From Candidatus Aenigmarchaeota archaeon LH_S4 (GTDB lineage: Archaea > Aenigmatarchaeota > Aenigmatarchaeia > QMZS01), in the NCBI GenBank assembly GCA_023659975.1, contig JAGXOI010000003.1:7633-39632 (forward strand): DNA of 32,000 nucleotides, given 5' to 3'. Below, one piece after another: positions 1,129 through 29,534 of this stretch (its first letter is position 1; the number at the start of each line of letters is the position of its first letter). The notes below the pieces were generated by a model. It had not been told where the DNA came from and did no database searches. It saw nothing but the letters and a program-made list of their open reading frames with translations. Position numbers and translations under genes: made by a program.

Positions 1129-1174
1129 TTTTAATTCCTTTATAATTGGAATCTTAACTGATTTTATATTTCAA

Positions 1175-1200
1175 TTACAGATAAAGTCCCAAGAAAGCTA
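1175..1200. repeat. 26-nt perfect inverted repeat, copy A (partner 18196-18221)
   Basis: ttacagataaagtcccaagaaagcta is the exact reverse complement of 18196-18221. The match stops abruptly at both ends. Confidence 0.95.
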
Positions 1201-1215
1201 CCGACTTTAGTCGTG
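1201..1215. repeat. 15-nt direct repeat ccgactttagtcgtg, copy 1
   Basis: Identical 15-mer at 1501-1515, exactly 300 nt downstream. It contains the quasi-palindrome CGACU-UU-AGUCG. Confidence 0.95.
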
Positions 1216-1500
1216 TATGGATTGGGCTGGAAAGAAGGGTATTTAAAGTTTTCTGTATATATTTATGGAGTTCTTTCTCTATAGCTGTGCTGGAGAAAGG
1301 TTAAAACTTCAGAACACTACACCTGTTAAAACCGTTGGCAACAACCAAATAAGAGGTAAGGTGCTTATACAATGAAAAGACCAACGAGGTTTAGGCTATA
1401 TGTCTAAACTAGGGTTTTGTTTTGGCACGCCCTATAACTGAGGCAGAGGACATAAAGAAGTCAGCAGGCTTTGTGGTTCAGAGTGCGATCTCAGAATCTC

Positions 1501-1515
1501 CCGACTTTAGTCGTG
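1501..1515. repeat. 15-nt direct repeat ccgactttagtcgtg, copy 2
   Basis: Identical to 1201-1215. It overlaps the CR-V-like motif and the stop codon of the minus-strand MBL gene fragment. Confidence 0.95.
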
Positions 1516-1665
1516 GAGAGTGTCAATGAGAAGTATTTTTCCATTTGTTCCAGTATCAAAAAGAATCTTTGAAGTATTTTCTACTTCCAACAAACAAGAG
1601 AAACCCCAATCAGCCTCTAAATTAGGTTTGTATATAGTGTTATCATAGATTAGGGTTACTCTCAT
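1507..1665 (-). pseudogene. N-terminal fragment (52 codons) of an MBL-fold metallo-hydrolase
   Basis: Hand translation gives MRVTLIYDNTIYKPNLEADWGFSCLLEVENTSKILFDTGTNGKILLIDTLHD*. This resembles the N-terminus of MBL-fold hydrolases (..AEHGFS.LIE....ILFDTG..) but stops before the HxHxDH motif. The stop TAA lies inside the 15-nt repeat. Confidence 0.5.
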
Positions 1666-2540: not shown

Positions 2541-3647
2541 TTAACTCAAACTCTCTAAAATATCCTCAAGATTCTTCTTTGTTTTTATCCCGGTCTCGGA
2601 AAAATGTGTTCTCTTTCCTTCCAACTTTTCCAGTAGAATTACCATTTTCTTCGGCTGTTTTTTGTTTAATTTGCAAAGTTTGTGAATATCGAAATAGAGG
2701 GGAAAATTTTGCTCATCTCTAACTCTTCTTATTAAACTACTTATATGAGTACCTGTTTCTTTGACTTTTGGAGGCAAAATTTTATCTATCTCTGTCGAAC
2801 CTCCTATTTCTTTTAAAATTTGATTACAAAATTCTTTAGAAGCAAAATTTCCAAGATAAATTTCCTGGATTAAATTTGTTTTTCTTCCACAAAACTCACA
2901 TTTCTCAGAAATTCCCTCTTTTCTCCAACCACATTTTTGGCAGTAAGAGAAATAACTAAATTGTTTTAATAATTTATCTGCCCTGCCAGCACCCCTCTCA
3001 ATTTTTCCAAAGATTCTGAAATAGTGCCTTTGATAATAAGAGAAAATTGGTTTAAATGCTAAATCATATTTTGCAAAGTTTCTAATTGCTGCAGAAATCA
3101 AGATTCTTAATCCAATTTCCTTTGAAAAATCTGTTCTCAAACTCTTGATTCCATATCTTCTTAGAGAAGTTAAGGGGGAAGTTCCACAGAGGGGTGCTGT
3201 GTCTGTTGCTGTAATTGCAACTGTCCCTCCTATTCTTATTGATTTTGCTGCAGAGTCAAGAAAATAAATTGGGGAACCAAAAGGGTCAATATCAATAAAA
3301 TCAAACCTCTCTTCAAGTACCAATTTATTTGCATCTTTGTTTTCTATTCTGACTTTTAATTTATTTAATTCTGCATTTTTTCTTGCAAATTCAACAACTC
3401 TTGGATTTTTATCATTTAAAACAACTTCTGAATCTTCCAATATAGAAGCATATCTCAAACCTCTAACTCCAGAAGCGCAAAACAAATCACAAATTTTCTT
3501 TGGTTTCAAAATTTTTACAATAACCTCAGACAAATCCCTGTCAAATTTCATCTCAGGATTATAAAAAACATCCATCCTCTTTGTTAATTTCTCTTCAACA
3601 GGAATTGATAATTTGATTTCCCTCTCCTTTATTGTTTGGAGTTTCAT
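2541..3647 (-). CDS. trm1: tRNA (guanine26-N2)-dimethyltransferase Trm1
   Basis: 368 aa. N-terminus VFYNPEMKFDRDLS and SAM-binding DLFCASGVRGLRYA. C-terminal Cys cluster (CQKCGW...CEFCG). Typical archaeal Trm1 layout. Confidence 0.85.
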   Translation of the reverse strand: MKLQTIKEREIKLSIPVEEKLTKRMDVFYNPEMKFDRDLSEVIVKILKPKKICDLFCASGVRGLRYASILEDSEVVLNDKNPRVVEFARKNAELNKLKVRIENKDANKLVLEERFDFIDIDPFGSPIYFLDSAAKSIRIGGTVAITATDTAPLCGTSPLTSLRRYGIKSLRTDFSKEIGLRILISAAIRNFAKYDLAFKPIFSYYQRHYFRIFGKIERGAGRADKLLKQFSYFSYCQKCGWRKEGISEKCEFCGRKTNLIQEIYLGNFASKEFCNQILKEIGGSTEIDKILPPKVKETGTHISSLIRRVRDEQNFPLYFDIHKLCKLNKKQPKKMVILLEKLEGKRTHFSETGIKTKKNLEDILESLS

Positions 3648-5226: not shown

Positions 5227-7593
5227 ATGGAAAATTTGCCGAAGAGACCTAATTTCAAGGAAATTGAGAATAGATGGAGAGATTTTTGGAAAAAAGAAAA
5301 AATATATAAATTTAATATAAATTCTAAAAAGAAAATATTTTCTATAGATGTTCCACCAATAACTCCTTCAGGAAAAATGCACATTGGACATGTAATGAGT
5401 TATACACATTTTGAATATATTGCAAGGTACAAAAGAATGCAAGGTTTTGAAGTATTTTTTCCAGCCTGCTTTGATGATAATGGTTTGCCAACTGAAAAAT
5501 ATGTTGAGGAGACCAAAAAAGTGTCCAAAGCCACGGTTGAAAGAAACAAATTCAGGGAGCTATGTTTCAACTCTGCAACAGAACTTGAAAAAGAATATAG
5601 CAAAATTTTTGAGGTTTTGGGATTTTCCTGGAATAATGATTTGTTGTATAGAACAATTAATTCTTTTTGTCAGAAGCAGGCTCAAAGATCTTTTATTGAT
5701 TTGTATAAAAAAGGTGAAATTTATAGAGAGGAAGAGCCGACAATATGGTGCCCTTTTCATCAGACAGCTTTAGCACAGGCAGAAGTGGATGATTTGGAGA
5801 GAAGAACTACTCTTAATTATTTGACTTTTGAAGTAGAGGATGGAGATAAAATAGAGATAGCAACAACAAGACCAGAATTTCTACCAGCTTGTGTTGGGAT
5901 AGCAGTTCATCCAGAAAAATATAAAGTGGGTAGGGAAGCGACAGTTCCTATTTTTGGCCAAAAGGTTAAAATTTTCAGGGATGAAAGAGTTGACCCTGAA
6001 TTCGGCACAGGAGCGGTGATGATTTGTACATTTGGTGATAAGACAGATATTGAGTGGTGGAAAGCATATAATCTTCCGCTTAAAATCTGCATTACGAAGG
6101 AGGGGAAAATGAATGAATTGGCAAAAGAGTATGGGGGGATGACAATAGAAGAAGCAAGAAAAAAGATAATTGATGATTTGAAAGAAAAAAACATTTTATA
6201 TAAACAAGAAGACTTAAAACAAAGGGTTGGAGTTTGCTGGAGATGCAAAACGCCAATTGAGTTTATAGTTACAAAACAATGGTTTGTTAAAGTTTTGAAA
6301 CACAAAGAGAAACTTATAGAACTGGGCAGAAAATTAAACTGGTATCCAGCATTTTACAGAAAGAGGTATGAGGATTGGGTAAATAATCTAAAGTGGGATT
6401 GGGCTATCTCAAGGCAGAGATATTATGGGATTCCTTTTCCTGTTTGGTATTGCAAAAACTGTGGAGAAGTTGTTTTAGCAGATGATAAAGAGTTACCAGT
6501 AGACCCAACCAAAAACAAACCAAAAAAATGTCCGCTATGTAACTCAAAAGAATTTATTCCTGAATTAGATGTTTTTGATACTTGGTTTACTTCTTCTATT
6601 ACACCCCTAATTAATTCAAAATGGAAAGAAGACGAAGCTTTTTTCAAGGAATTGTTTCCAATGAGTTTAAGACCAAATGGCCATGACATAATTAGAAGTT
6701 GGACTTTTTACACAATTTTAAAATCTTATTTACATTTAGGTAAACTTCCGTGGAAGGATGTAATGATTTCAGGTCATGGTCTGGACCCAAAAGGAAAGAA
6801 AATGAGTAAATCACTTGGAAATATTGTTGAACCTTTTGATATCATTAACAAGTATGGTGCAGATGCCATAAGGTTATGGGCAACAACAGCTAAAGTTGGT
6901 GAAGACTTACCTTTTAGGGAAGAAGATTTGAAACATAATAAGGATATTTTAATTAAGTTGTGGAATGCTTCAAGATTTATCCATCCAAACACTGAAAAAT
7001 TAGAGAAACCAGAATTAACTTTAATTGATAAATGGATTCTAACAAGATTTTCTCAGGTTGTTGAAAATTATCACAAATCTTTTGATAAATATGAACTTAG
7101 TGAAGCAAGAAGAATTACAGAAATGTTTTTTAAACATGAGTTCTGCGATTTTTATCTTGAGATGGTCAAGTACAGGATTTATAGGGATAATGATAAATTA
7201 AGTGCCAAATGGACTTTATATGAATTGTTCCTTGGAATTATTAAGTTATTCGCCCCATTTATTCCTTATATTACAGAAGAGATTTATCAAAAATTATTTA
7301 AAAAAACAGAGAAAAATTTAAGTATTCATCTATCTTCTCTTCCAGAAAAAATAATTGAAGATGAAGAGAGTCTAAAAATTGGAGAGTTGCTGAAAGATGT
7401 AACTTCAGAAGTCCGCAAATGGAAAATCTCAAATAAGTTATCTCTTGGAAAACAAATTACCAAAATAGAGATAACAGCAAAAAAGGAAGAAATTGAGAAA
7501 TTAAAACTGGTTCTGGATGACATAAAAGGAACAAACAGAGTTAAGGAAGTCGTGTTCAAAGAGGGAGAATTTGGAGTTAATTGTGGGATTTGA
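5227..7593 (+). CDS. valS: Valine--tRNA ligase (class Ia)
   Basis: HIGH-type motif PSGKMHIGH and KMSKS motif KMSKSLGN. CP1/editing signatures IATTRPEFLPACVGIAVHPE and GTGAVMICTFGD. FDDNGLPTE follows the catalytic-core start. 788 aa. Confidence 0.8.
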   Translation: MENLPKRPNFKEIENRWRDFWKKEKIYKFNINSKKKIFSIDVPPITPSGKMHIGHVMSYTHFEYIARYKRMQGFEVFFPACFDDNGLPTEKYVEETKKVSKATVERNKFRELCFNSATELEKEYSKIFEVLGFSWNNDLLYRTINSFCQKQAQRSFIDLYKKGEIYREEEPTIWCPFHQTALAQAEVDDLERRTTLNYLTFEVEDGDKIEIATTRPEFLPACVGIAVHPEKYKVGREATVPIFGQKVKIFRDERVDPEFGTGAVMICTFGDKTDIEWWKAYNLPLKICITKEGKMNELAKEYGGMTIEEARKKIIDDLKEKNILYKQEDLKQRVGVCWRCKTPIEFIVTKQWFVKVLKHKEKLIELGRKLNWYPAFYRKRYEDWVNNLKWDWAISRQRYYGIPFPVWYCKNCGEVVLADDKELPVDPTKNKPKKCPLCNSKEFIPELDVFDTWFTSSITPLINSKWKEDEAFFKELFPMSLRPNGHDIIRSWTFYTILKSYLHLGKLPWKDVMISGHGLDPKGKKMSKSLGNIVEPFDIINKYGADAIRLWATTAKVGEDLPFREEDLKHNKDILIKLWNASRFIHPNTEKLEKPELTLIDKWILTRFSQVVENYHKSFDKYELSEARRITEMFFKHEFCDFYLEMVKYRIYRDNDKLSAKWTLYELFLGIIKLFAPFIPYITEEIYQKLFKKTEKNLSIHLSSLPEKIIEDEESLKIGELLKDVTSEVRKWKISNKLSLGKQITKIEITAKKEEIEKLKLVLDDIKGTNRVKEVVFKEGEFGVNCGI

Positions 7594-7631
7594 TAAATTC
7601 CTGCTAAAACTTAAATTTTTTAACTAATTTT

Positions 7632-10607
7632 ATGCTTTACAATCCAAAGGAAGTAGAGGAAAAAATCCTGAAAAAATGGGAAGAAGAGGAAACTTATAAA
7701 AAAGTTAGAGAGAGAGGAAAAGAAAAGTTCTATTTTTGTGATGGCCCTCCCTATGCTTCAGGATTTCTGCACTTGGGACAAACTCTGAATTATAGTTTAA
7801 AAGATTCTTGGATAAGGGTACTTAGATTAAAAGGATACAAAGTCTTTGACAGGCAGGGCTATGATACTCATGGAACTCCAATAGAAGTAAAAGTAGAAAA
7901 AGCTCTAGGATTTACTTCAAAAAAAGATATTGAAAGAGGGGGATTAAAAAACTTTATTTCGAAGTGCAAAGAATTTGCAACAAAAAACATTTCAAAGCAG
8001 AAAGAGCAGTTAAAAGATATAGGAGTATGGATGGATTTGGAAAATCCCTATCTTACTTTTTCAGATGATTTCATCTTAGCAATTTGGCGGACATTTAAAA
8101 AAGCAGAGGAAAAAGGTTTGCTATATAAGGGTGTTTATCCAGTATACTCTTGCCCAAGATGTGAGACAGTTGTTGCATATAATGAGATTGAATATAAAAA
8201 TATTGAGGATATTGCTATTTATGTATTAATAAAACTAAGGGGGAAAGATGAATATTTAGTTATATGGACAACAACCCCCTGGACTTTACCAGCAAATGTT
8301 GCGGTGGTAGTTAACCCAAATTTTCGGTATGTTGAGCTAGATTATAATAACAAAAAAATTATTGTTGCAAAAGAACTTTCTAAAAAATTTGAAAACTCAC
8401 AGATTATTAAGGAATTTTCAGGTAGAGAATTGGTTGGTTTGGAATATGAACCTATTTTGGAAGATAATAAGATTACTCCAATTATTGTTCCTTCAGAAAA
8501 ATTTGTAACTTTGGAAGAAGGAACAGGTCTTGTACACTGTGCTCCAGGACATGGAAAAGAGGATTTTGAGATTGGAAAAGAAAACAATTTAAAAGTAGTT
8601 TGTCCAGTTGGTCTTGATGGAAGATTCAAAGAAACAAAATATAAGGATAAACTCGTTTTTGATGCGAATAAAGAAATAGTTGATGAATTAAGGGAAAAAG
8701 GCGTACTTCTTAAAGAAGAAAAAATAAAACATGATTATCCAACCTGCTGGAGATGCCATACAAAATTAATAACTCTAACAATACCAGAATATTTTTTTGG
8801 TGCAACAAAGATTAGGGACAAATTACTTGAGGAAAATGAAAAAATTTACTGGAAACCTAATTGGGCAAAGGAAAGATTTAAGGACTGGCTTAAATCGATT
8901 GGAGATTGGCCTGTTTCAAGGCAGAGATATTGGGGCACTCCAGTTCCAATCTGGGAGTGTAATAAATGTGGGAAAATTGAGGTAATTGGCTCAAGAGAAG
9001 AACTTGAACAAAAATCAAAAAGAAAAGTTACAGAACTGCACAGACCAGAGATTGATGAAATAGAAATTCCGTGTGACTGTGGTGGAAGAAAGAAAAGAAT
9101 TCCAGATGTTTTTGATGTTTGGTTGGATTCTGGGGTGGCATCCTGGGCAAATTTTGATAACTCAAAGGAACTATTTGAAAAATTCTGGCCTGCTGATTTG
9201 GAAATTGAAGGAAGTGACCAGATAAGAGGGTGGTGGAATTCTCAATTAATTTTGTCAGTAATTGCCTTTGATAGAAGACCTTTTGAGACAATAATTTACC
9301 ATGGAATGATTCTTGACAATGTTGGAAAAAAAATGTCAAAGAGTATTGGAAATGTTGTGATGCCAGGGGATATTATTTCAAAATATGGAAGGGATGTTTT
9401 AAGATTGACCCTCTTATCTGAGGTTCCTTGGAAAGATATATTTTTTAGTTTTGATTTGGCAAAAACTGCTTTTAACAAACTGAACATTATATATAACTGT
9501 TTTCAATACTTCAAAAATTACAAAAAATCTGAAAATTACCCAATTAAATTACAAACCGAAGATAAGTGGATTATATCCAGACTAAATTCTGTAATTGAAA
9601 AATCTGATGAATATTTATCAAAAAAAGAATTGCATAATTATATAAGAGAAGTTGTGGATTTTTTGGTGGAGGATGTCAGCAGGGTTTATATTAAACTTGT
9701 GAGAGACAAGATTCTTGTAAGTTCTTCTGTATCCAAAGTTCTGGATGAAGTTCTCCAAAAAGTAAATATTCTTATTTCTCCATTTGCCCCATTTTTATCA
9801 GAAAGTCTTTATTTTGGAAATAAGAACAGCGTGTTTCTGGAAAATTGGCCCAAGGTTGAAAAAGAAAAAATAAATTCAGAATTAGAGGAAAAATTTGAAA
9901 TTGCTAAGGAAATATCAAAAGCAATGAATAGCGAGAGGCAAAAACATTCTGTTAGGTTAAGATTACCAATAAAAAAGGCAACTGTATTTGGCTCTACCAA
10001 AATAAAAGAAGTTATTGATGAGACCAAAGAGATTATAAAATCTCTTTCAAATTTAAAAGAAATTGAGTTTAAGGAAAGCGAAAAAGTTGAGATAAAACCT
10101 AATTTTGCAAAAATTGGAAAAAAATTCGGAGCAAGAACAAGTGAAGTGGCCAAGTTGATTTCAAAAATGAAACCAGAGGATTTAAAAGATGAAATTGAAC
10201 TTGGAGAATTTAAAATAAAAAGAGATGATTTGGTTGTAAGACAGAGGGGTGTTGAAGGAACTATTTTCTCCAAAGGTTATGTAACTTTGGATTTAACTGA
10301 GGATAAAGAATTGAAAGAAGAAAGATTTTTAAGAGAATTAATCAGAGAAATCCAGAAGGCGAGACAGGAAGAAAAATTAAATGTCCTTGATAGAATAACT
10401 TTGTTCCTTGAGGATAAAGAATTTATAAAAAAATTTGAAGACGAGTTAAAAAAAGAAGTAAGAGCAGAGAAAATTGTTTATGGGTTAGGAGAGAAAACAA
10501 TCATTCGCGAAGCGAATGGTGCACCATTTGCAAAGCAAATGCGTGAATTGGAAGCAAGTTATAAAGATTTGAATTTGGCGTTTGGGTTTGAGAGATATGT
10601 TTTGTAA
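7632..10607 (+). CDS. ileS: Isoleucine--tRNA ligase
   Basis: GPPYASGFLHLGQ, GYDTHGTPIEVKVEK, editing-domain WTTTPWTLPANVAVVV, and KMSKSIGN. 991 aa. The last ~47 codons belong to a duplicated segment (see repeat features). Confidence 0.9.
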   Translation: MLYNPKEVEEKILKKWEEEETYKKVRERGKEKFYFCDGPPYASGFLHLGQTLNYSLKDSWIRVLRLKGYKVFDRQGYDTHGTPIEVKVEKALGFTSKKDIERGGLKNFISKCKEFATKNISKQKEQLKDIGVWMDLENPYLTFSDDFILAIWRTFKKAEEKGLLYKGVYPVYSCPRCETVVAYNEIEYKNIEDIAIYVLIKLRGKDEYLVIWTTTPWTLPANVAVVVNPNFRYVELDYNNKKIIVAKELSKKFENSQIIKEFSGRELVGLEYEPILEDNKITPIIVPSEKFVTLEEGTGLVHCAPGHGKEDFEIGKENNLKVVCPVGLDGRFKETKYKDKLVFDANKEIVDELREKGVLLKEEKIKHDYPTCWRCHTKLITLTIPEYFFGATKIRDKLLEENEKIYWKPNWAKERFKDWLKSIGDWPVSRQRYWGTPVPIWECNKCGKIEVIGSREELEQKSKRKVTELHRPEIDEIEIPCDCGGRKKRIPDVFDVWLDSGVASWANFDNSKELFEKFWPADLEIEGSDQIRGWWNSQLILSVIAFDRRPFETIIYHGMILDNVGKKMSKSIGNVVMPGDIISKYGRDVLRLTLLSEVPWKDIFFSFDLAKTAFNKLNIIYNCFQYFKNYKKSENYPIKLQTEDKWIISRLNSVIEKSDEYLSKKELHNYIREVVDFLVEDVSRVYIKLVRDKILVSSSVSKVLDEVLQKVNILISPFAPFLSESLYFGNKNSVFLENWPKVEKEKINSELEEKFEIAKEISKAMNSERQKHSVRLRLPIKKATVFGSTKIKEVIDETKEIIKSLSNLKEIEFKESEKVEIKPNFAKIGKKFGARTSEVAKLISKMKPEDLKDEIELGEFKIKRDDLVVRQRGVEGTIFSKGYVTLDLTEDKELKEERFLRELIREIQKARQEEKLNVLDRITLFLEDKEFIKKFEDELKKEVRAEKIVYGLGEKTIIREANGAPFAKQMRELEASYKDLNLAFGFERYVL
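10461..10600. repeat. Direct repeat copy 1 = in-frame 3' end of ileS
   Basis: ~140 bp aligns with 11473-11612 (offset 1012 bp). It includes perfect runs of 52 nt (10497-10548) and 27 nt (10550-10576). The flanks are more diverged. Confidence 0.9.
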
Positions 10608-10628
10608 ATAATACTTATTGTAAATATT

Positions 10629-11186
10629 ATGTTATATATGGAACAAAAAAATTACAGTTTTGAAATTGTGCTTGGATTGTTGAGAAATGAAAATCACATT
10701 AGAGGTTTAGCTAAAATATTAGGTATAAATCATATGAGTGTAAGGAGGAAATTGAGCGATCTCTTTAATGAGAATGTTGTTGATTATAAAAAGGAAGGGA
10801 AAAATAAAAATTATTTTTTGAAAAAAACAATCGAGGCAAAGACCTACATTTTTATGAGTGAAGAATACAAATTGCTGAAGACTTTGAAAAGATATCCGGG
10901 TTTAAGAAGAATAATTGAAAATATTCAGAAGAATAATAAAATAAAACTTGCAATTTTATTTGGTTCTTATGCAAAGGGGAATGCAAAAAAAGAGAGCGAT
11001 GTAGATATTTTTGTAGATTCTGTAAGTAGAGATTTAAAAAAAGAACTGGAATTATTTGATCGCAGAATTAGTATCAAAATTGGAAGATATGAAAAACAAA
11101 ATATTCTTATAAAGGAAATCAAAAAAAATCATGTTATAATCAAAGGGGTTCAGAAATATTATGAGCAAAATAAATTTTTTGATTAA
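10629..11186 (+). CDS. wHTH + minimal nucleotidyltransferase (MNT-type) protein
   Basis: N-terminal wHTH-like segment (IRGLAKILGINHMSVRRKLSDL). Pol-beta-type NTase motif LFGSYAKGNAKKESDVDIFV (GS-x9-11-D-x-D). Confidence 0.75.
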   Translation: MLYMEQKNYSFEIVLGLLRNENHIRGLAKILGINHMSVRRKLSDLFNENVVDYKKEGKNKNYFLKKTIEAKTYIFMSEEYKLLKTLKRYPGLRRIIENIQKNNKIKLAILFGSYAKGNAKKESDVDIFVDSVSRDLKKELELFDRRISIKIGRYEKQNILIKEIKKNHVIIKGVQKYYEQNKFFD

Positions 11187-11438
11187 ACTGAAAAATCAGG
11201 GGAAACTTGAGTTGGTAGAGCCAAGCGAGGAACTAAAAGAAGCTTATCTAAGAAAGTCAGAAAGTTATCTGAATTCTGCAAAAATTTTATAGATTTTCAT
11301 ATAACTCGGGAAGATACCAACAGACTTATAAAAATCGCTGAAGAATTTAATGCAAAAATAATTGATTACATACAAAAACTGAATAATGAAGATATTCTTA
11401 GATACAGAGAAAAAATAAAAAAAGAAATAAGGAGTTGA
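11161..11438 (+). pseudogene. HEPN-domain gene remnant (frameshifted, internally deleted)
   Basis: ATG at 11161 overlaps the MNT gene end. The first piece, MSKINFLIKLKNQGKLELVEPSEELKEAYLRKSESYLNSAKIL*, stops at 11290-11292. The second piece is in another frame: DFHITREDTNRLIKIAEEFNAKIIDYIQKL...RS* (11292-11438). The central part of a normal ~125-aa HEPN domain is missing. Confidence 0.6.
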
Positions 11439-11472
11439 AAAAAGATATTGAAAAAAATGGGAAAAGGGATTA

Positions 11473-11612
11473 AGAGCTGAGAAAGTTGTTTATGGGTTGA
11501 AAGAGAAGACAATCATTCGCGAAGCGAATGGTGCACCATTTGCAAAGCAAATGCGTGAATGGGAAGCAAGTTATAAAGATTTGAATTTAGGGTTTAGGAT
11601 TGAGAAGGATTA
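11473..11612 (+). pseudogene. Displaced duplicate of the ileS 3' end (direct repeat copy 2)
   Basis: Reads LRAEKVVYGLKEKTIIREANGAPFAKQMREWEASYKDLNLGFRIEKD*, parallel to the ileS C-terminus VRAEKIVYGLGEKTIIREANGAPFAKQMRELEASYKDLNLAFGFERYVL*. It is preceded by an in-frame TGA (11449-11451). Confidence 0.8.
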
Positions 11613-11674
11613 AATTCCTTTATCTATTGAAAGTATAGTATAAGACTTATATATCTTCATTCCAATTGGAATGT

Positions 11675-11758
11675 ATGCAACAAGATGAAATTGATCTTAT
11701 TGATACCAAGCTAAAGAAAGAGCGAGATCTAAAGGTGCGGGATAGGCTAAGAATGTAG
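11675..11758 (+). pseudogene. Short N-terminal fragment of a transposase-like HTH protein
   Basis: 27-codon ORF MQQDEIDLIDTKLKKERDLKVRDRLRM*. The K-x-R-V-R-D-R-L segment resembles the N-terminal HTH region common in IS630/Tc1-type transposases. The rest of the gene is absent. Confidence 0.3.
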
Positions 11759-11821
11759 CAATCATTATAGCCAGTGCCAAACAAACAATTTATAATATTT
11801 CATCAAATATTCCCCCTCCCC

Positions 11822-12721
11822 CTATTTTTTATGATTTTTATTATAATTTAACTCCACTTTCTTGTCCGGTGATATAAAATAAAGAGAATCACCCAAGTAA
11901 TCGGCAAATTCTGGAATTTTGCTTAAAGATAAGCTCCCAGCAAACCCATAGAATGCTGCATCGTAGACATATTCAATCTCACCGCCCATTTTTTTGAACA
12001 GGTTTAACTGAGTTTTGTTACAAGGCTGCCTAAGCATTACAATTATTGGAGCTATTTGATCTGTTCCTGTTTTTTTCTCATCTATAATCTGTTTATCAAG
12101 AGAATCATCTATCCTATTAGTATTCTTATCAAACGCTTCTGGTACTGGAGGAAGTTCTGGAACAAATTCCGTCTGCTGAATGAAGCCAGAACGATACATT
12201 GCCTTTTCAATTGTCTTGTTTAATTCGCGCCTCTGATTTAACTTTGCAACACCAGCCTTCACCCCCCACTCATCGCTTCCCTCAACTAACAACATCGCTT
12301 TCTCCTCATTCCAGGGATTCCTCAAAATCTCTAAAATTCCTTTGTTTTGTCCAGGATATTCCTCAGTTACCCTTGTCGCATTTGTTATATTATATACTTC
12401 CTCTAAGACTTTATTTGAATTTGGCGTGCCAACTACAATTAAATTATAAGAGTGTTTAAAACTTTCAATTTCTTTGGAGGAGATAATGTCTGGCTTATTG
12501 CCTGTTAGATTTTTCAAATTCGCTGCTATCGCTTCTGCACTTTCTTTCTCTATTTGAGTTGCGTTTTCACCAATCACGATTACCGTATTTTCCTTAAACA
12601 CCTCTGGAAAATCACTCAGCTCTAATTCCTTTGGTAGTGGTGTAGATATCTGCCAGAGAAAATATCCAGTAATAAGAGAAACCACAATTACTATTCCTAG
12701 TATTAAGATTTTCTTCTTCAT
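11822..12721 (-). CDS. Signal-anchored secreted protein with a C-terminal subtilase-propeptide (inhibitor I9)-like domain
   Basis: N-terminal hydrophobic anchor KKKILILGIVIVVSLITGYFLW. Central LIVVGTPNSNKVLEE / NPWNEEKAMLLVEGSDEWGVKAG module. The C-terminus IIVMLRQP...KKMGGEIEYVYDAAFYGFAGSLSLSKIPEFA fits the I9 propeptide pattern. No protease domain is attached. Confidence 0.5.
   Translation of the reverse strand: MKKKILILGIVIVVSLITGYFLWQISTPLPKELELSDFPEVFKENTVIVIGENATQIEKESAEAIAANLKNLTGNKPDIISSKEIESFKHSYNLIVVGTPNSNKVLEEVYNITNATRVTEEYPGQNKGILEILRNPWNEEKAMLLVEGSDEWGVKAGVAKLNQRRELNKTIEKAMYRSGFIQQTEFVPELPPVPEAFDKNTNRIDDSLDKQIIDEKKTGTDQIAPIIVMLRQPCNKTQLNLFKKMGGEIEYVYDAAFYGFAGSLSLSKIPEFADYLGDSLYFISPDKKVELNYNKNHKK
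12250..12475. repeat. ~225-bp dispersed repeat copy 1 (inside CDS 11822-12721)
   Basis: Aligns by eye at roughly 90% identity with 13260-13485. It includes the identical run ccccactcatcgcttccctcaactaacaacatcgctttctcctcattccagggatt. Confidence 0.85.
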
Positions 12722-12805
12722 AATTTATTACTTTTATCTTATATATTAATTTAGAAAAATCAAATAATATAACAGTGTAAATTTTAATCACTCCCTCTTT
12801 AAATT

Positions 12806-12826
12806 GACAGAGGACGAGCCTCTGTC
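12806..12826. other. GC-rich hairpin between the two paralogous secreted-protein genes
   Basis: gacagagg-acgag-cctctgtc: an 8-bp perfect stem with a 5-nt loop in otherwise AT-rich spacer. It is downstream of CDS 12943-13398 and upstream of CDS 11822-12721 (both minus strand). A terminator or regulatory role is a guess. Confidence 0.3.
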
Positions 12827-12942
12827 GCCTCATTAGGATCTCAATTCATCCTTAAGCCAATAAATAATGTTAATAAGGAGTATTGGCCTTATTAATATCA
12901 AACAAAGTATCTGTCGATATCAAAGAACCAATACATCATATT

Positions 12943-13398
12943 TCATTCCCCCTTCTTCTCGTAGCTTATTATATTAATTGCTTTTTGGGTATATGTATTG
13001 GATTCTCCAGCTTCTGGGATAATAATTTCAGTTCTTGTTATATAACCCTTGACTTTTACTTTTGTCCCTTCGCCTAATTTAATTAAATCTTGGGATTTAT
13101 TTCCTATTGGCATATACATATCTCCATCACTTGCTTGAATAACCCACATCTTCGCAGACACAAATGATACTTGTTTTATTTCTCCTTGAATTAGTTCCAT
13201 ATTTGAGGAGATAAGCATGCTTGCACCTTTTACCTTCTTAAAATCAATTAATTTCACACCTCCTGCCTTCACTCCCCACTCATCGCTTCCCTCAACTAAC
13301 AACATCGCTTTCTCCTCATTCCAGGGATTGTTCAATATCTCCAAAACCCCTTTATTCTCTCCTGGATATTCCTCTGTTACCCTTGTCACATCTGTCAT
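12943..13398 (-). CDS. 5'-truncated paralog of 11822-12721 fused to a different C-terminal beta-rich domain
   Basis: TRVTEEYPGENKGVLEILNNPWNEEKAMLLVEGSDEWGVKAG is nearly identical to the neighbouring protein. Homology continues upstream of the ATG without a start (KKIESFKYSYNLIVVGTPESNKVLEEVYN, open to ~13500). There is no signal anchor, so it may be a pseudogene. Confidence 0.45.
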   Translation of the reverse strand: MTDVTRVTEEYPGENKGVLEILNNPWNEEKAMLLVEGSDEWGVKAGGVKLIDFKKVKGASMLISSNMELIQGEIKQVSFVSAKMWVIQASDGDMYMPIGNKSQDLIKLGEGTKVKVKGYITRTEIIIPEAGESNTYTQKAINIISYEKKGE

Positions 13399-13485
13399 AT
13401 TATATACTTCCTCTAAGACTTTATTTGATTCTGGCGTGCCAACTACAATTAAATTATAAGAGTATTTAAAACTTTCGATTTTTTT
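13260..13485. repeat. ~225-bp dispersed repeat copy 2
   Basis: Partner of 12250-12475, in the same orientation. Confidence 0.85.
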
Positions 13486-13568
13486 ATAGGTAGAATTTTA
13501 TAACACAAAAAACTTATTTCTTATAATCACTTACAGTTGAGTAGTGAAAAAGAAGATGTGCTAAATTT

Positions 13569-18152: not shown

Positions 18153-18221
18153 CTAGGCAAGCCGGGAAATCTTTGGTGGATAAATATATTTGAACTAGCT
18201 TTCTTGGGACTTTATCTGTAA
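18153..18221 (-). other. Mini-locus carrying the 26-nt RNase P-like 5' segment plus a CR-V-like motif (function and strand unknown)
   Basis: The minus strand reads UUACAGAUAAAGUCCCAAGAAAGCUA-(29 nt)-CCCGGCUUGCCUAG. The first 26 nt are identical to 1175-1200. AAAGAUUUCCCGGCUUG resembles CR-V (ACAGAAnnnGGCUUA). Confidence 0.3.
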
Positions 18222-18390
18222 AGTAAAAATCAAGGTTGCTGTTATAATGTATGGATTTGATGTTAGAAACACCAAACAGGAAAAACAAATTAACCAGATT
18301 AATTTTGCTCTGGGTCTAATTTATGAACAAATGAATCTCTGTGAACATATTCGTAGAATCTCATACTCTTATCTAAAGTCTAATAAAACT

Positions 18391-19332
18391 TTACTCAAAT
18401 TTATTAACAACCTTTGAATCCTTATTCTTTAGCAAAACAATTCTTGAATTCTCTGACCTATCTTCAAATTTGTAATTACTTTTTTTTGAAATTTCCAAAG
18501 CAAACTTTTTTATCTCTTCAAAATCAGGCATTTTTTCATCTCCCAATCTCTTTTTTGAGTAACCCAAACTCATAAACGCTTTTACTTCAACAAAATCAGG
18601 GTTCCCCTTTTCTATTAATTTTAGATATCCTTTTATATCTTCAGAGGAATTGTTAAGACCTTTAATTAAAGTTAATCTTAAAATTCTTCTACCTTTAAAA
18701 CTGTGCATTATTTCCAAACTTTCGTTGAATTTATTCCAAGCATTTTCTCCTATGGGTCTACATATTTCTAAAAATTTTTCTTCATTTGGGGCATTTAGAG
18801 AAATATACAACTGAAAATTTTTCTTTGGTTTTAACAAAGACAAAACATCTGGCCTTGTTCCATTAGTTACTAAAAAAACTGTTCTACCTTTATTTGTTAG
18901 ATAGTCGATCAATTCTATAAGTTTTGGATAAAGAGTTGGCTCCCCTGATAATGAAATTGCAAAATGGTTTGGCTCAAGAGCTTCTTTTAACTTTTTTTTG
19001 TCAGAGATACTCCCTCCAAACCCAGAAAGTAATTTTTTCCTCTGTTCAATTAGTTTTTCTACAATTTCCCCTGGTTTGTCAATTTCTTCTGGAATTTTGT
19101 TCCTAAAAAGTTCATTTGGAGACCAGCAAAATAAACATCTCAGGTTGCAGAAAACAACACTTGGTGAAAACTGCATACATCTGTGGCAGTCAATCCCATA
19201 AAATTTTTCTTTGTAGCAGAAACCCTCCCCTCTTAAACTTCTTTTTGTCCACTCACAAATCTGTACTCCTGAATGGTTAAATATTTTATAGTGTTTTTTT
19301 TCTAATTCTTTTCTCAATTTTTCATTTAACAT
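18391..19332 (-). CDS. taw1: tRNA 4-demethylwyosine synthase (radical SAM, Taw1/TYW1)
   Basis: Radical-SAM cluster CNLRCLFCW. An upstream Cys cluster (CYKEKFYGIDCHRC) for the second Fe-S site. Length and layout fit Taw1. Confidence 0.8.
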   Translation of the reverse strand: MLNEKLRKELEKKHYKIFNHSGVQICEWTKRSLRGEGFCYKEKFYGIDCHRCMQFSPSVVFCNLRCLFCWSPNELFRNKIPEEIDKPGEIVEKLIEQRKKLLSGFGGSISDKKKLKEALEPNHFAISLSGEPTLYPKLIELIDYLTNKGRTVFLVTNGTRPDVLSLLKPKKNFQLYISLNAPNEEKFLEICRPIGENAWNKFNESLEIMHSFKGRRILRLTLIKGLNNSSEDIKGYLKLIEKGNPDFVEVKAFMSLGYSKKRLGDEKMPDFEEIKKFALEISKKSNYKFEDRSENSRIVLLKNKDSKVVNKFE

Positions 19333-19981: not shown

Positions 19982-20152
19982 AATATTTACTAAACTTTTA
20001 AATAGTTAAGGCTTTTATTGAACAGATAAAAAGGCTTAAAAAATGGTATGCACCTTTATAACTCTTTTATTTAATGCAAAAATCAAACTAACATATTTTT
20101 CCAAAGCATAGCAGTTAAATTAAATGGTTAATAAATTGCGGAAACTAATTAT

Positions 20153-20372
20153 GGGCTCGTGGTCCAGTGGCTAAGATTTCAATAGCAAACGTCGCGTTCA
20201 CAGGAGCTTTTCTTTCTTTAAGAAAAATAATTAAATAGTGGTGGTAATCTAAACTCTGAAATTCGCGAAGATCGAGAGTTCAATGCAACTTTTCTCAGGA
20301 AAAGTTTTTTCTCTGAAAAAACAAGAACTGCACTGAAATTGGTGCAGAAGAGGGGGAATCTCTCCGAGCCCA
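20153..20372 (+). tRNA. tRNA-Val: tRNA-Val(CAC) with three putative introns
   Basis: Exons 20153-20176, 20190-20202, 20263-20281 and 20356-20372 assemble into a 73-nt cloverleaf. Acceptor GGGCUCG/CGAGCCC, A73, D-stem GUCC/AGAC, anticodon stem UCGCG/CGCGA, loop UUCACAU, T-arm GAGAG-UUCGAAU-CUCUC. Introns: 13 nt (D-arm), 60 nt (canonical 37/38) and 74 nt (T-loop). Confidence 0.7.
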
Positions 20373-24944: not shown

Positions 24945-25094
24945 ATAAAAAAGGCTCAGTTAAGCGAAGATTATGAAGCTGGTTTTGGCTTGAGCCTTTT
25001 GTCAATTACTTCATAAAAAAGGCTCAGTTAAGCGAAGATTATGAAGCTGGTTTTGGCTTGAGCCTTTTGTCAATTACTTCATAAAAAAGGCTCA
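24945..25094. repeat. 68-bp tandem repeat, 2 identical full copies plus a 14-nt partial third
   Basis: The unit ataaaaaaggctcagttaagcgaagattatgaagctggttttggcttgagccttttgtcaattacttc occurs at 24945-25012 and 25013-25080, with a restart at 25081-25094. Each unit contains a 10-bp inverted repeat aaaaggctca/tgagcctttt around a 32-nt loop. Confidence 0.95.
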
Positions 25095-28153: not shown

Positions 28154-28306
28154 ATGATAAGAGACAAACAAATTTTGTATATGCTTATAATTCTCCTTGT
28201 ATTATTCCTTATATTTCAAATAATTTTTACTTATTATTTCTTTAAGCCGGATGGTGTCTGGGAAATTCTGCAATCTATTTATTTTGCTTCTAATATATTT
28301 GGTTGA
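28154..28306 (+). CDS. Possible 50-aa small membrane protein
   Basis: Hand-translated MIRDKQILYMLIILLVLFLIFQIIFTYYFFKPDGVWEILQSIYFASNIFG*. One TM helix. It ends just before the downstream gene start. There is no other support. Confidence 0.25.
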   Translation: MIRDKQILYMLIILLVLFLIFQIIFTYYFFKPDGVWEILQSIYFASNIFG

Positions 28307-28314
28307 TTCTGAAG

Positions 28315-29277
28315 ATGATAGGAAAAATAATCATTCAGAGGACGAAACATATTTTAGTAATACTGCTGTTACTTTTTACCCTGAGTTTACCCATTATAGC
28401 ACAAACTCAATGTTCCTGCATAAAACTTATACGAGAAAATGCGGATTTTTGTGATGGTCAAAACGTTACTTTAGTTGGTAAAGTTACAAATCTTGATTTT
28501 TCAATCTCAGAAAATGGAAATAAATACACAACCTTCCTGTTAGATGATAATATAGATAAACCAATTAAAGTCTTTAGTTATTTGCATTTGAAAATTTCAG
28601 ACGGAGATAGAGTAAATGTAAAGGGGATATTTCACAAAACTATAAAAAAAGGAGAACATACTTTTTATTTTGAAATTACAACAGATATGGAAGGTATTTC
28701 CATAATTAAAAAACCTTCCTTTATCTCCAAAGAGTCTTATGTTATATTTTTATTTATTCTTGCTTTAGTTGGTGGATATGTTGTTTATAAAAAATACAAA
28801 CCAACTAGACACAAAATTGGAAGAACTTTTGAGTCTTATACTTTATCTCTCTTTGGTCCCAAAGACTGGATTATTGTAACAAAAACAGGAGACTTTGCAG
28901 AAAAACTTGGTAGAAAAGTTGAATCTGATTCCAATCCAGACCTTATAATGAAACACAGAACTACAAATAAAGTCATTGCTTTTGAATGTAAATATCGTTC
29001 AGCCTTTAAAAAGTTAAATAGAGGTGAAGGAGTAGTTTGGGCTCAAGAATACCAGATTAAAAATTACAAGGTATACCAAGAAAAAACCCATACTCCTGTA
29101 TTTGTAGTTATTGGTGTTGGTGGGAAACCAACAAACCCGCAACATTTATATCTTCCACCTTTATATGCTTTGAAGTATTCATTAGCATTTAAAGAATATC
29201 TGGAGGGATTTGAACGAGAAGCTAAAAGTAAATTTACACTTGAAGAGTTTAAGAAATTTTATGATAAATTAAAATAG
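28315..29277 (+). CDS. Membrane protein: signal anchor + OB-fold + TM + PD-(D/E)xK nuclease-like domain
   Basis: ATG at 28315 (the track ORF begins at 28303). HILVILLLLFTLSLPIIA anchor. OB-fold-like GQNVTLVGKVTNLDF...YTTFLLDD...IKVFSY...GDRVNVKGIFHK. Second TM YVIFLFILALVGGYVVY. C-terminal restriction-endonuclease-like core: FESYTLSLF, PDLIM...KVIAFECKYRS (D...E-x-K). Confidence 0.55.
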   Translation: MIGKIIIQRTKHILVILLLLFTLSLPIIAQTQCSCIKLIRENADFCDGQNVTLVGKVTNLDFSISENGNKYTTFLLDDNIDKPIKVFSYLHLKISDGDRVNVKGIFHKTIKKGEHTFYFEITTDMEGISIIKKPSFISKESYVIFLFILALVGGYVVYKKYKPTRHKIGRTFESYTLSLFGPKDWIIVTKTGDFAEKLGRKVESDSNPDLIMKHRTTNKVIAFECKYRSAFKKLNRGEGVVWAQEYQIKNYKVYQEKTHTPVFVVIGVGGKPTNPQHLYLPPLYALKYSLAFKEYLEGFEREAKSKFTLEEFKKFYDKLK

Positions 29278-29316
29278 TAACTACATTTTTAGCTTGTAAT
29301 TTTAATTATTTCAAAA

Positions 29317-29488
29317 TGGGCTCGAGGAGATTTCCAATTGGCAAATCGGAAAATTGCAAATCTTTGATTTGCCAGATTTGAATTCAGGAAAGTTTTTTAA
29401 AAACTTCACTCCTGATCTCCGCGATGTCAACGCGACGTCCTAACCAACTATCCCAAGATTATAAAAATCCTGTCTAGACCACGAGCCC
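29317..29488 (-). tRNA. tRNA-Val: tRNA-Val(GAC) with three putative non-canonical introns
   Basis: Exons 29488-29474, 29447-29409, 29382-29375 and 29328-29317 assemble into a 74-nt cloverleaf. Acceptor GGGCUCG/CGAGCCC, A73, D-arm GUCU-AGUUGGUUA-GGAC, anticodon arm UCGCG-UUGACAU-CGCGG, T-arm AGGAG-UUCAAAU-CUCCU. Introns of 26, 26 and 46 nt each contain a strong hairpin. Junctions can slide by 1-5 nt because of repeated bases. Confidence 0.8.
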
Positions 29489-29534
29489 ATAATTAATTAC
29501 TAAGTTTTTATCTCTTAATTTAAAAATAAACCGA

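Follow-up and report, generated by a model that had tools for sequence, protein, structure and literature searches.

The window, by which we mean the whole 32 000-nt stretch of DNA analysed, carries on its minus strand (29488..29317) a genuine tRNA-Val(GAC) gene of 172 nt, in which four exons are interrupted by three introns. Read from 29488 to 29317 the gene runs GGGCTCGTGGTCTAG / 26 nt / TTGGTTAGGACGTCGCGTTGACATCGCGGAGATCAGGAG / 26 nt / TTCAAA / 46 nt / TCTCCTCGAGCCCA. Exon 1 (GGGCTCGTGGTCTAG; 29474..29488, minus) supplies tRNA positions 1–15, and exon 2 (TTGGTTAGGACGTCGCGTTGACATCGCGGAGATCAGGAG; 29409..29447, minus) supplies positions 16–53 with an intact anticodon arm (GAC). Exon 3 (29377..29382, minus) is a 6-nt micro-exon, UUCAAA, which lies between introns 2 and 3, is delimited by the bulge-helix-bulge (BHB) registers of both, and provides positions 54–59. 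Exon 4 (UCUCCUCGAGCCCA; 29317..29330, minus) completes positions 60–73 and ends with the discriminator A73; CCA is unencoded. A TTTT run (29313..29316, minus) abuts A73 and is likely an archaeal transcription stop. A similar T run is found 3′ of the Val(GAC) gene at three related loci (L059, L092 and L103; related loci are given L numbers throughout).

The spliced product of 74 nt is called tRNA-Val(gac) by ARAGORN and folds into a regular cloverleaf with all stems paired; the universal residues U8, A14, G18G19, U33, U54U55C56 and A58 can all be read in it. This agrees with the preliminary description of the locus, made from the letters alone, according to which three deletions leave a perfect 74-nt cloverleaf. 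Its further claim, that the three introns are non-canonical, with site 37/38 empty and the anticodon loop uninterrupted, is borne out by the spliced product together with the BHB registers given below. The four exons are collinear within the one 172-nt locus, and neither trans-splicing nor permutation is needed. Their G+C content is 57%, that of the window 31%. In the unspliced window ARAGORN reports no tRNA, and Rfam reports none at gathering scores or at E≤5, which only shows that these tools are blind to the gene.

Neighbouring proteins place the host among the DPANN archaea, in the Aenigmarchaeota. The alpha-mannosidase encoded beside the tRNA gene, truncated where the window stops, is 99% identical in GCA_023659955.1, GCA_023658875.1 and two Logan assemblies, and is 77–78% identical to proteins of Candidatus Aenigmarchaeota metagenome-assembled genomes (MAGs). 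Matches to the proteasome beta subunit give the same picture, and the window also encodes CDP-archaeol synthase, UbiA prenyltransferase, Trm1 and the wyosine-forming radical-SAM enzyme Taw1. The three-intron gene is present in four near-identical assemblies (two NCBI MAGs and two Logan assemblies) that differ in it by a single SNP, located in a loop of intron 3. Annotations of the window and the related loci include no gene for EndA or RtcB.

Beside the tRNA gene lies a 324-aa ORF (28303-29277, plus) that has no Pfam match. The 99%-identical strains L001–L004 keep only its 3′ end (L001:12798-13007), so that strains differ here by an indel of about 1 kb immediately downstream of tRNA-Val(GAC). 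Trm1, two large class I aminoacyl-tRNA synthetase genes and the wyosine radical-SAM enzyme (2541-3647, 5227-10607 and 18391-19332) share the 32 kb with both Val tRNA genes; such clustering of tRNA-related genes is probably coincidence.

Bulge-helix-bulge motifs at the intron boundaries

In a BHB motif, whether strict (hBHBh′) or relaxed (HBh′, hBH or BHL), each strand is cleaved after the second base of a 3-nt bulge. It follows from the canonical 37/38 intron that the four exon bases before the last two pair with the four intron bases before the last two. We applied this rule to every junction register that the sequence repeats allow at each intron. A raw listing of BHB-like pairs and a scan of the whole window for acceptor-stem pairs were too noisy to use.

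Intron 1 (26 nt; 29448..29473, minus) interrupts the D loop at 15/16, with the cut after G15. Its central helix joins G10UCU13 to intron bases GGAU, 4/4 in this register only and with two G-U pairs; a 7-bp inner hairpin lies within, and the outer helix consists of two G-U pairs. Intron 2 (26 nt; 29383..29408, minus) lies at 53/54, cut after G53, and has an all Watson-Crick 4/4 central helix of C48AGG51 with intron CCUG. The inner hairpin is 7–9 bp and the outer helix is absent, giving the relaxed HBh′ type. Intron 3 (46 nt; 29331..29376, minus) lies in the T loop at 59/60, cut after A59. There U54UCA57 pairs with intron UGGA, 4/4 in this register alone, and a 9-bp inner hairpin stands behind a relaxed 4x2 loop, an irregular 5′ bulge. 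The T stem (AGGAG/CUCCU) becomes the 5-bp outer helix of intron 3 only once intron 2 has been removed.

All three introns therefore have the 4-bp central helix, in strict or relaxed form, at their boundaries, and the other junction registers give 0–3 pairs. Shuffled introns reach 4/4 in the right register at frequencies of 0.030, 0.012 and 0.014 for introns 1, 2 and 3. The preliminary description had picked its deletions from the cloverleaf alone, so that the fit of the BHB register is an independent test of them. Its coordinates stand for introns 1 and 2; intron 3, which it had placed at 29374-29329, moves by 2 nt to 29376-29331 in the BHB register and leaves the same mature sequence. Its observation that each intron contains a 7–9-bp hairpin of its own holds (7, 7–9 and 9 bp). 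All three conform to the standard BHB motif of archaea, and their mechanism is accordingly the known one.

A different reading would have the segments removed or tolerated without a BHB-directed EndA, through self-splicing, another nuclease, or as small mobile DNA elements that merely resemble introns. The lack of an outer helix in intron 2 and the irregular 5′ bulge in intron 3 speak for it, and the short direct repeats that flank intron 1 (TAG) and intron 3 (AAATC) are readable as target-site duplications. However, a BHB motif gives rise to flanking repeats through its own two-fold symmetry, and EndA is known to accept the relaxed HBh′ and hBH forms as substrates (PMC5829648). With 26, 26 and 46 nt the segments are far below the size of group I or group II introns, and no Rfam family of catalytic introns was found in them at E≤5; reading them by eye, we saw no box C/D motifs in the three. 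The geometry of a 4-bp helix with 3-nt bulges also recurs in the exact register at 12 of the 13 introns of the seven orthologous genes described below, the remaining one having 3/4 pairs and no other register reaching 4/4. We regard removal or tolerance without BHB-directed cleavage as highly improbable, and retain BHB-directed splicing.

Orthologues, the second Val gene and intron turnover

Orthologues were collected by scanning genome contigs with a 20-nt anticodon-arm pattern, by a metagenome scan, and from the syntenic gene in L009. The anticodon-arm scan returned at least 119 matches, mostly bacterial Val(GAC) genes, with five usable archaeal loci among the matches listed. The six loci from the metagenome scan were duplicates of known types or a non-orthologous, probably bacterial Val(GAC) gene (L129).

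With the window's gene included, seven distinct Val(GAC) orthologues are available, all of which splice to a 74-nt tRNA-Val(gac). Their exons are identical or near-identical (72–74 of 74 bases), and they carry five different intron complements. The window's gene has introns at 15/16, 53/54 and 59/60. The syntenic gene of L009 (GCA_030620695.1) has the 59/60 intron only, there 118 nt long, and L092, represented also by L134, likewise has 59/60 only. L059, with L130–133, has only 53/54. L100 and L103 both have 15/16 and 59/60, and L107 has 23/24 and 59/60.

These relatives confirm the exon joins, because they carry them uninterrupted in their DNA. Exon 1 is joined to exon 2 in L009, L059, L092 and L107, and relatives also have exon 3 directly abutting the exons on either side. 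In L009, which is without introns 1 and 2, exons 1 and 2 and exons 2 and 3 adjoin in the DNA, and L059 lacks introns 1 and 3; the joins predicted for the window occur in them as contiguous DNA. The exons of both are 72–73/74 identical to those of the window (exon 2 has one difference from each), and their introns are unalignable with the window's.

Joined exons and unalignable introns in relatives exclude chance and assembly artefact and, in practice, a pseudogene too. That the cloverleaf arose by chance from three free deletions, or that the locus is an assembly artefact, might be entertained given the many degrees of freedom in three such deletions and the origin of the window in a metagenome-assembled genome. 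But the same exons directly joined in relatives already refute it, four independent assemblies agree on the locus, its exons stand at 57% G+C in a window of 31%, and the BHB registers fit although they were not used in choosing the deletions. Its probability is negligible.

A decaying tRNA pseudogene that has retained its insertions, with a functional Val(GAC) copy elsewhere in the genome, is also very unlikely. Coverage of the genome amounts to 32 kb and a few strain contigs, which leaves room for another copy, and neither ARAGORN nor Rfam recognises the locus. Against decay, the exons are free of defects, with their stems paired and universal residues present. They are invariant across the four assemblies, where the lone SNP falls in an intron loop, and 72–73/74 identical to those of relatives whose proteins are just 77–78% identical. 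Each insertion retains its BHB central helix in exact register. Interruption is moreover normal in the group, since 13 of the 14 Aenigmarchaeota tRNA genes seen are interrupted. We therefore consider it very probable that the window holds a functional tRNA-Val(GAC) gene of the Aenigmarchaeota, interrupted at 15/16, 53/54 and 59/60 by archaeal introns of the protein-spliced type.

The window contains a second valine gene, tRNA-Val(CAC), of 220 nt (20153..20372, plus), whose spliced product is called tRNA-Val(cac) by ARAGORN. Its introns are 13 nt at 23/24 (20176-20188, plus; GCUA with UAGC, 4/4), 60 nt at the canonical 37/38 (20203-20262, plus; UUCA with UGAA, the outer helix being the anticodon stem) and 74 nt at 59/60 in the T loop (20285-20358, plus). 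Orthologues are found beside Val(GAC) in L131 and L133, and beside the proteasome gene in L136. That of L131 has the window's three sites; that of L136 has 37/38 and 59/60 without 23/24. Both L131 and L136 place the T-loop intron at 59/60, within a T loop of UUCAAUU. A T arm with two introns, nested or side by side, was also considered for the window's Val(CAC) and is ruled out by the single 59/60 intron with a 4/4 helix in L131 and L136. Scanning the window's intergenic regions for motifs turned up no other tRNA-like gene.

The acceptor stems of the two Val genes are identical (GGGCTCG/CGAGCCC), as is the 5′ anticodon-stem strand, UCGCG, and their D stems are GUCU and GUCC; these similarities had been described as identity of the first two and near-identity of the third, and the sequences agree. 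The two genes use five intron positions and share only 59/60, in keeping with the earlier statement that the sites differ and that a T-loop site is perhaps common to both. The 5′ flank is conserved, as had been noted: AATTAT precedes G1 in both (flanks 20143-20152 and 29489-29498). TTAT or TATAT stands immediately 5′ of G1 in every Val gene of the clade (L009, L059, L092, L100, L103, L107, L131 and L136). The conserved flank could reflect promoter spacing, the transcription start or RNase P context.

At 59/60 an intron is present in six of the seven Val(GAC) orthologues and in 3/3 Val(CAC) genes; among the former its intron strand is UGGA, UGAA or UGAG, always pairing with the invariant UUCA. 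This distribution indicates that the 59/60 intron is old in the Aenigmarchaeota clade examined. The introns of L100 and L103 at 15/16 occupy the same site as the window's intron 1 and are unrelated to it in sequence, and the 53/54 intron of L059 and L130–133, of 23 nt, ends in CCCTGAA as does the window's intron 2. On the sequence comparison, the introns at 15/16 and 53/54 have been gained and lost between close relatives.

Signs of intron mobility, other interrupted tRNA genes and repeats

Introns of different tRNA genes within one genome can be closely alike. In L103 the 53/54 intron of the neighbouring tRNA-Ser(GGA) matches the Val 59/60 intron over the first 40 nt of the latter at 97.5% identity, and in L009 the T-loop introns of Val and Thr(GGT) are 97.6% identical over 42 nt. 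Such near-identical cores in different tRNA genes are a mobility signature. The earlier suggestion of recent intron gain, loss or mobility is thus upheld by the five complements over near-invariant exons and by the shared cores in relatives. The route of turnover is probably DNA-level intron movement, by analogy with what has been inferred for Thermoproteales. A blastn-short search for second copies of the window's own three introns found none in the window or in 13 related loci, a small part of the genome. A 22-nt match to intron 3 in L130 was set aside as chance, lying in an apparently coding stretch without tRNA-like features.

Of the 14 tRNA genes in the Aenigmarchaeota DNA examined, which comes from scattered contigs, 13 carry at least one non-canonical intron, and the sole uninterrupted one is Ser(TGA) in L005. 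Three other genes were seen at these loci: Glu(CTC) at L131:8113-8325, with introns in the D loop (about 120 nt) and at 54/55 (19 nt; helix CUGG/CCAG); Ser(GGA) at L103:4112-4388, whose D arm has a long insertion and which has an intron at 53/54 (helix CGCG/CGCG); and Thr(GGT) at L009:~8455-8630, with a T-loop intron, in which the contig end cuts the gene. ARAGORN detected none of these three.

A broader proposal, which to us is evenly balanced, is that the Aenigmarchaeota are a further hot spot of tRNA intron proliferation, like Thermoproteales and some Asgard archaea, with one to three non-canonical BHB introns in most tRNA genes (recurring at 15/16, 23/24, 53/54, 54/55 and 59/60) that are mobile and turn over fast. 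Turnover would then be rapid enough to set apart even species whose proteins are about 78–90% identical; in L103 one core is indeed seen at 59/60 in Val and at 53/54 in Ser. The window's Val(GAC) would be the extreme case, in which T-arm introns 6 nt apart force ordered splicing.

Several repeats were also noted in the window. A 38-nt sequence, TTTATATTTCAATTACAGATAAAGTCCCAAGAAAGCTA, consisting of a TATA-like box and a common 5′ segment, occurs at 1163-1200 (plus) and 18196-18233 (minus) in copies 87% identical, each preceding a region free of ORFs. The region 1186-1535 (plus) is richer in G+C (0.38–0.41), has CCGACTTTAGTCGTG twice, and contains the RNase P-like strings AUAAAGUCCC and AAGAAGUCAGCAGGCUUUG; the locus behind the second 38-nt copy has CCCGGCUUG. 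Rfam finds nothing in 1186-1535 at E≤5, and its fold is marginal against shuffles (z = -1.5). A structured RNA, for example RNase P or SRP RNA, may lie here in divergent or interrupted form, its second copy being truncated.

Between the genes for ribosomal protein S7 and a membrane protein, at 24945-25080, two perfect copies of a 68-nt unit with a hairpin (AAAAGGCTCA...TGAGCCTTTT) stand in tandem. Strain L001 has three copies of the unit, and 17 nt of it (AAAAGGCTCAAGCCAAA) recur in the Val(GAC) intron of L009 at 59/60. Diverged direct repeats, in both cases about 1010 nt apart, link 10417-10593 with 11429-11605 (84%) and 12238-12480 with 13248-13490 (88%). In the same region a 299-aa and a 151-aa ORF have a domain in common, and the 11187-11821 gap contains a copy of the 3′ end of the large class I aminoacyl-tRNA synthetase gene. 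The pattern in 10417-13490 suggests a segmental duplication of some age, about 1 kb in size.

Proposed splicing order and relation to known systems

From the known archaeal pathway, a single precursor of about 172 nt would be transcribed, ending at the T run, and its exon-intron boundaries would fold into the BHB or its relaxed form. EndA would cut within both 3-nt bulges, and an RtcB-type ligase would then join the exons. For intron 1 the motif would borrow the 5′ strand of the D stem, paired with GGAU as a mimic of the D-stem 3′ strand. The central helix of intron 2 would occupy C48-G51, taking in the first three bases (49–51) on the 5′ side of the T stem, while intron 3 would use the T stem as its outer helix, and the motifs of introns 2 and 3 would overlap at U54. 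Because of this conflict over the T-stem strand, the overlap at U54 and the 6-nt spacing, we infer that excision and ligation at intron 2 come before those at intron 3. With that order the 6-nt micro-exon would not come loose on its own. To cut at intron 2, which lacks an outer helix, and at intron 3, whose 5′ bulge is imperfect, EndA would presumably need a broad substrate specificity.

ARAGORN and the Rfam tRNA model miss both tRNA genes of the window and all the Val(GAC) orthologues of the relatives. Aenigmarchaeota MAGs annotated with such tools will seem to lack tRNAs, and the missed genes distort completeness and codon-usage inferences for DPANN, a gap already suspected (PMC5829648). The mechanism by which BHB introns are gained, lost and moved is still unknown (PMC4090602), and near-invariant exons with five intron complements and shared cores form a compact natural data set on all three processes. 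The pair of T-arm introns around a 6-nt exon is a convenient substrate for the study of ordered splicing and of the substrate range of DPANN EndA.

Three introns are the documented maximum for archaeal tRNA genes (PMC4033280, PMC8450103). As three-intron archaeal tRNAs and the BHB mechanism were already known, the gene is less unusual than its preliminary description implied. In the Thermoproteales (Pyrobaculum, Thermofilum, Caldivirga), non-canonical introns with BHB or relaxed motifs occur at up to three per gene, according to the work of Sugahara et al. (2007/2008) and Fujishima et al. (2010) as relayed in PMC4033280, PMC4090602 and PMC8450103. Similar introns in different tRNA genes are read there as intron transposition, in the accounts given by PMC4033280 and PMC4090602. 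Closely spaced introns need ordered removal, and tRNAscan-SE 2.0 explicitly allows such cases (PMC8450103). The window's gene has in common with the Thermoproteales its non-canonical BHB introns, their number of three per gene, and the ordered removal expected of close introns. It differs in that the host is a DPANN archaeon at 31% G+C, not a hyperthermophilic crenarchaeon, in the type of EndA to be expected, and in that its two T-arm introns are just 6 nt apart.

Within the DPANN, disrupted tRNA genes are known from ARMAN-1/2, which have the epsilon2 EndA (PMC3239211), and an alpha4 EndA with an L3 loop has been linked to tRNA gene disruption (PMC5829648). Kaneta et al. predict 'unidentified disrupted tRNA genes' in DPANN genomes, which need manual curation (PMC5829648). 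The window's gene belongs to the same superphylum and, like those genes, has non-canonical and multiple introns. In the literature searched we found no paper describing Aenigmarchaeota tRNA introns, and three-intron genes and shared intron families in this group appear undocumented there. Asgard archaea of the Atabeyarchaeia and Freyarchaeia have introns in 92–95% of their tRNA genes, often non-canonical and multiple in over half (PMC11291895). They belong to a different superphylum, but the 14 tRNA genes on scattered Aenigmarchaeota contigs hint at a comparable intron density.

Up to three non-canonical introns per tRNA gene are also found in Cyanidioschyzon merolae and algal nucleomorphs (PMC3728597, PMC4090602); these are eukaryotic and use the Sen complex, whereas the host of the window's gene is archaeal. 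The split and permuted tRNA genes of Nanoarchaeum equitans, Caldivirga and Thermofilum (PMC3218864) share the logic of BHB-based processing with the gene described here, whose exons instead lie collinear at a single locus.
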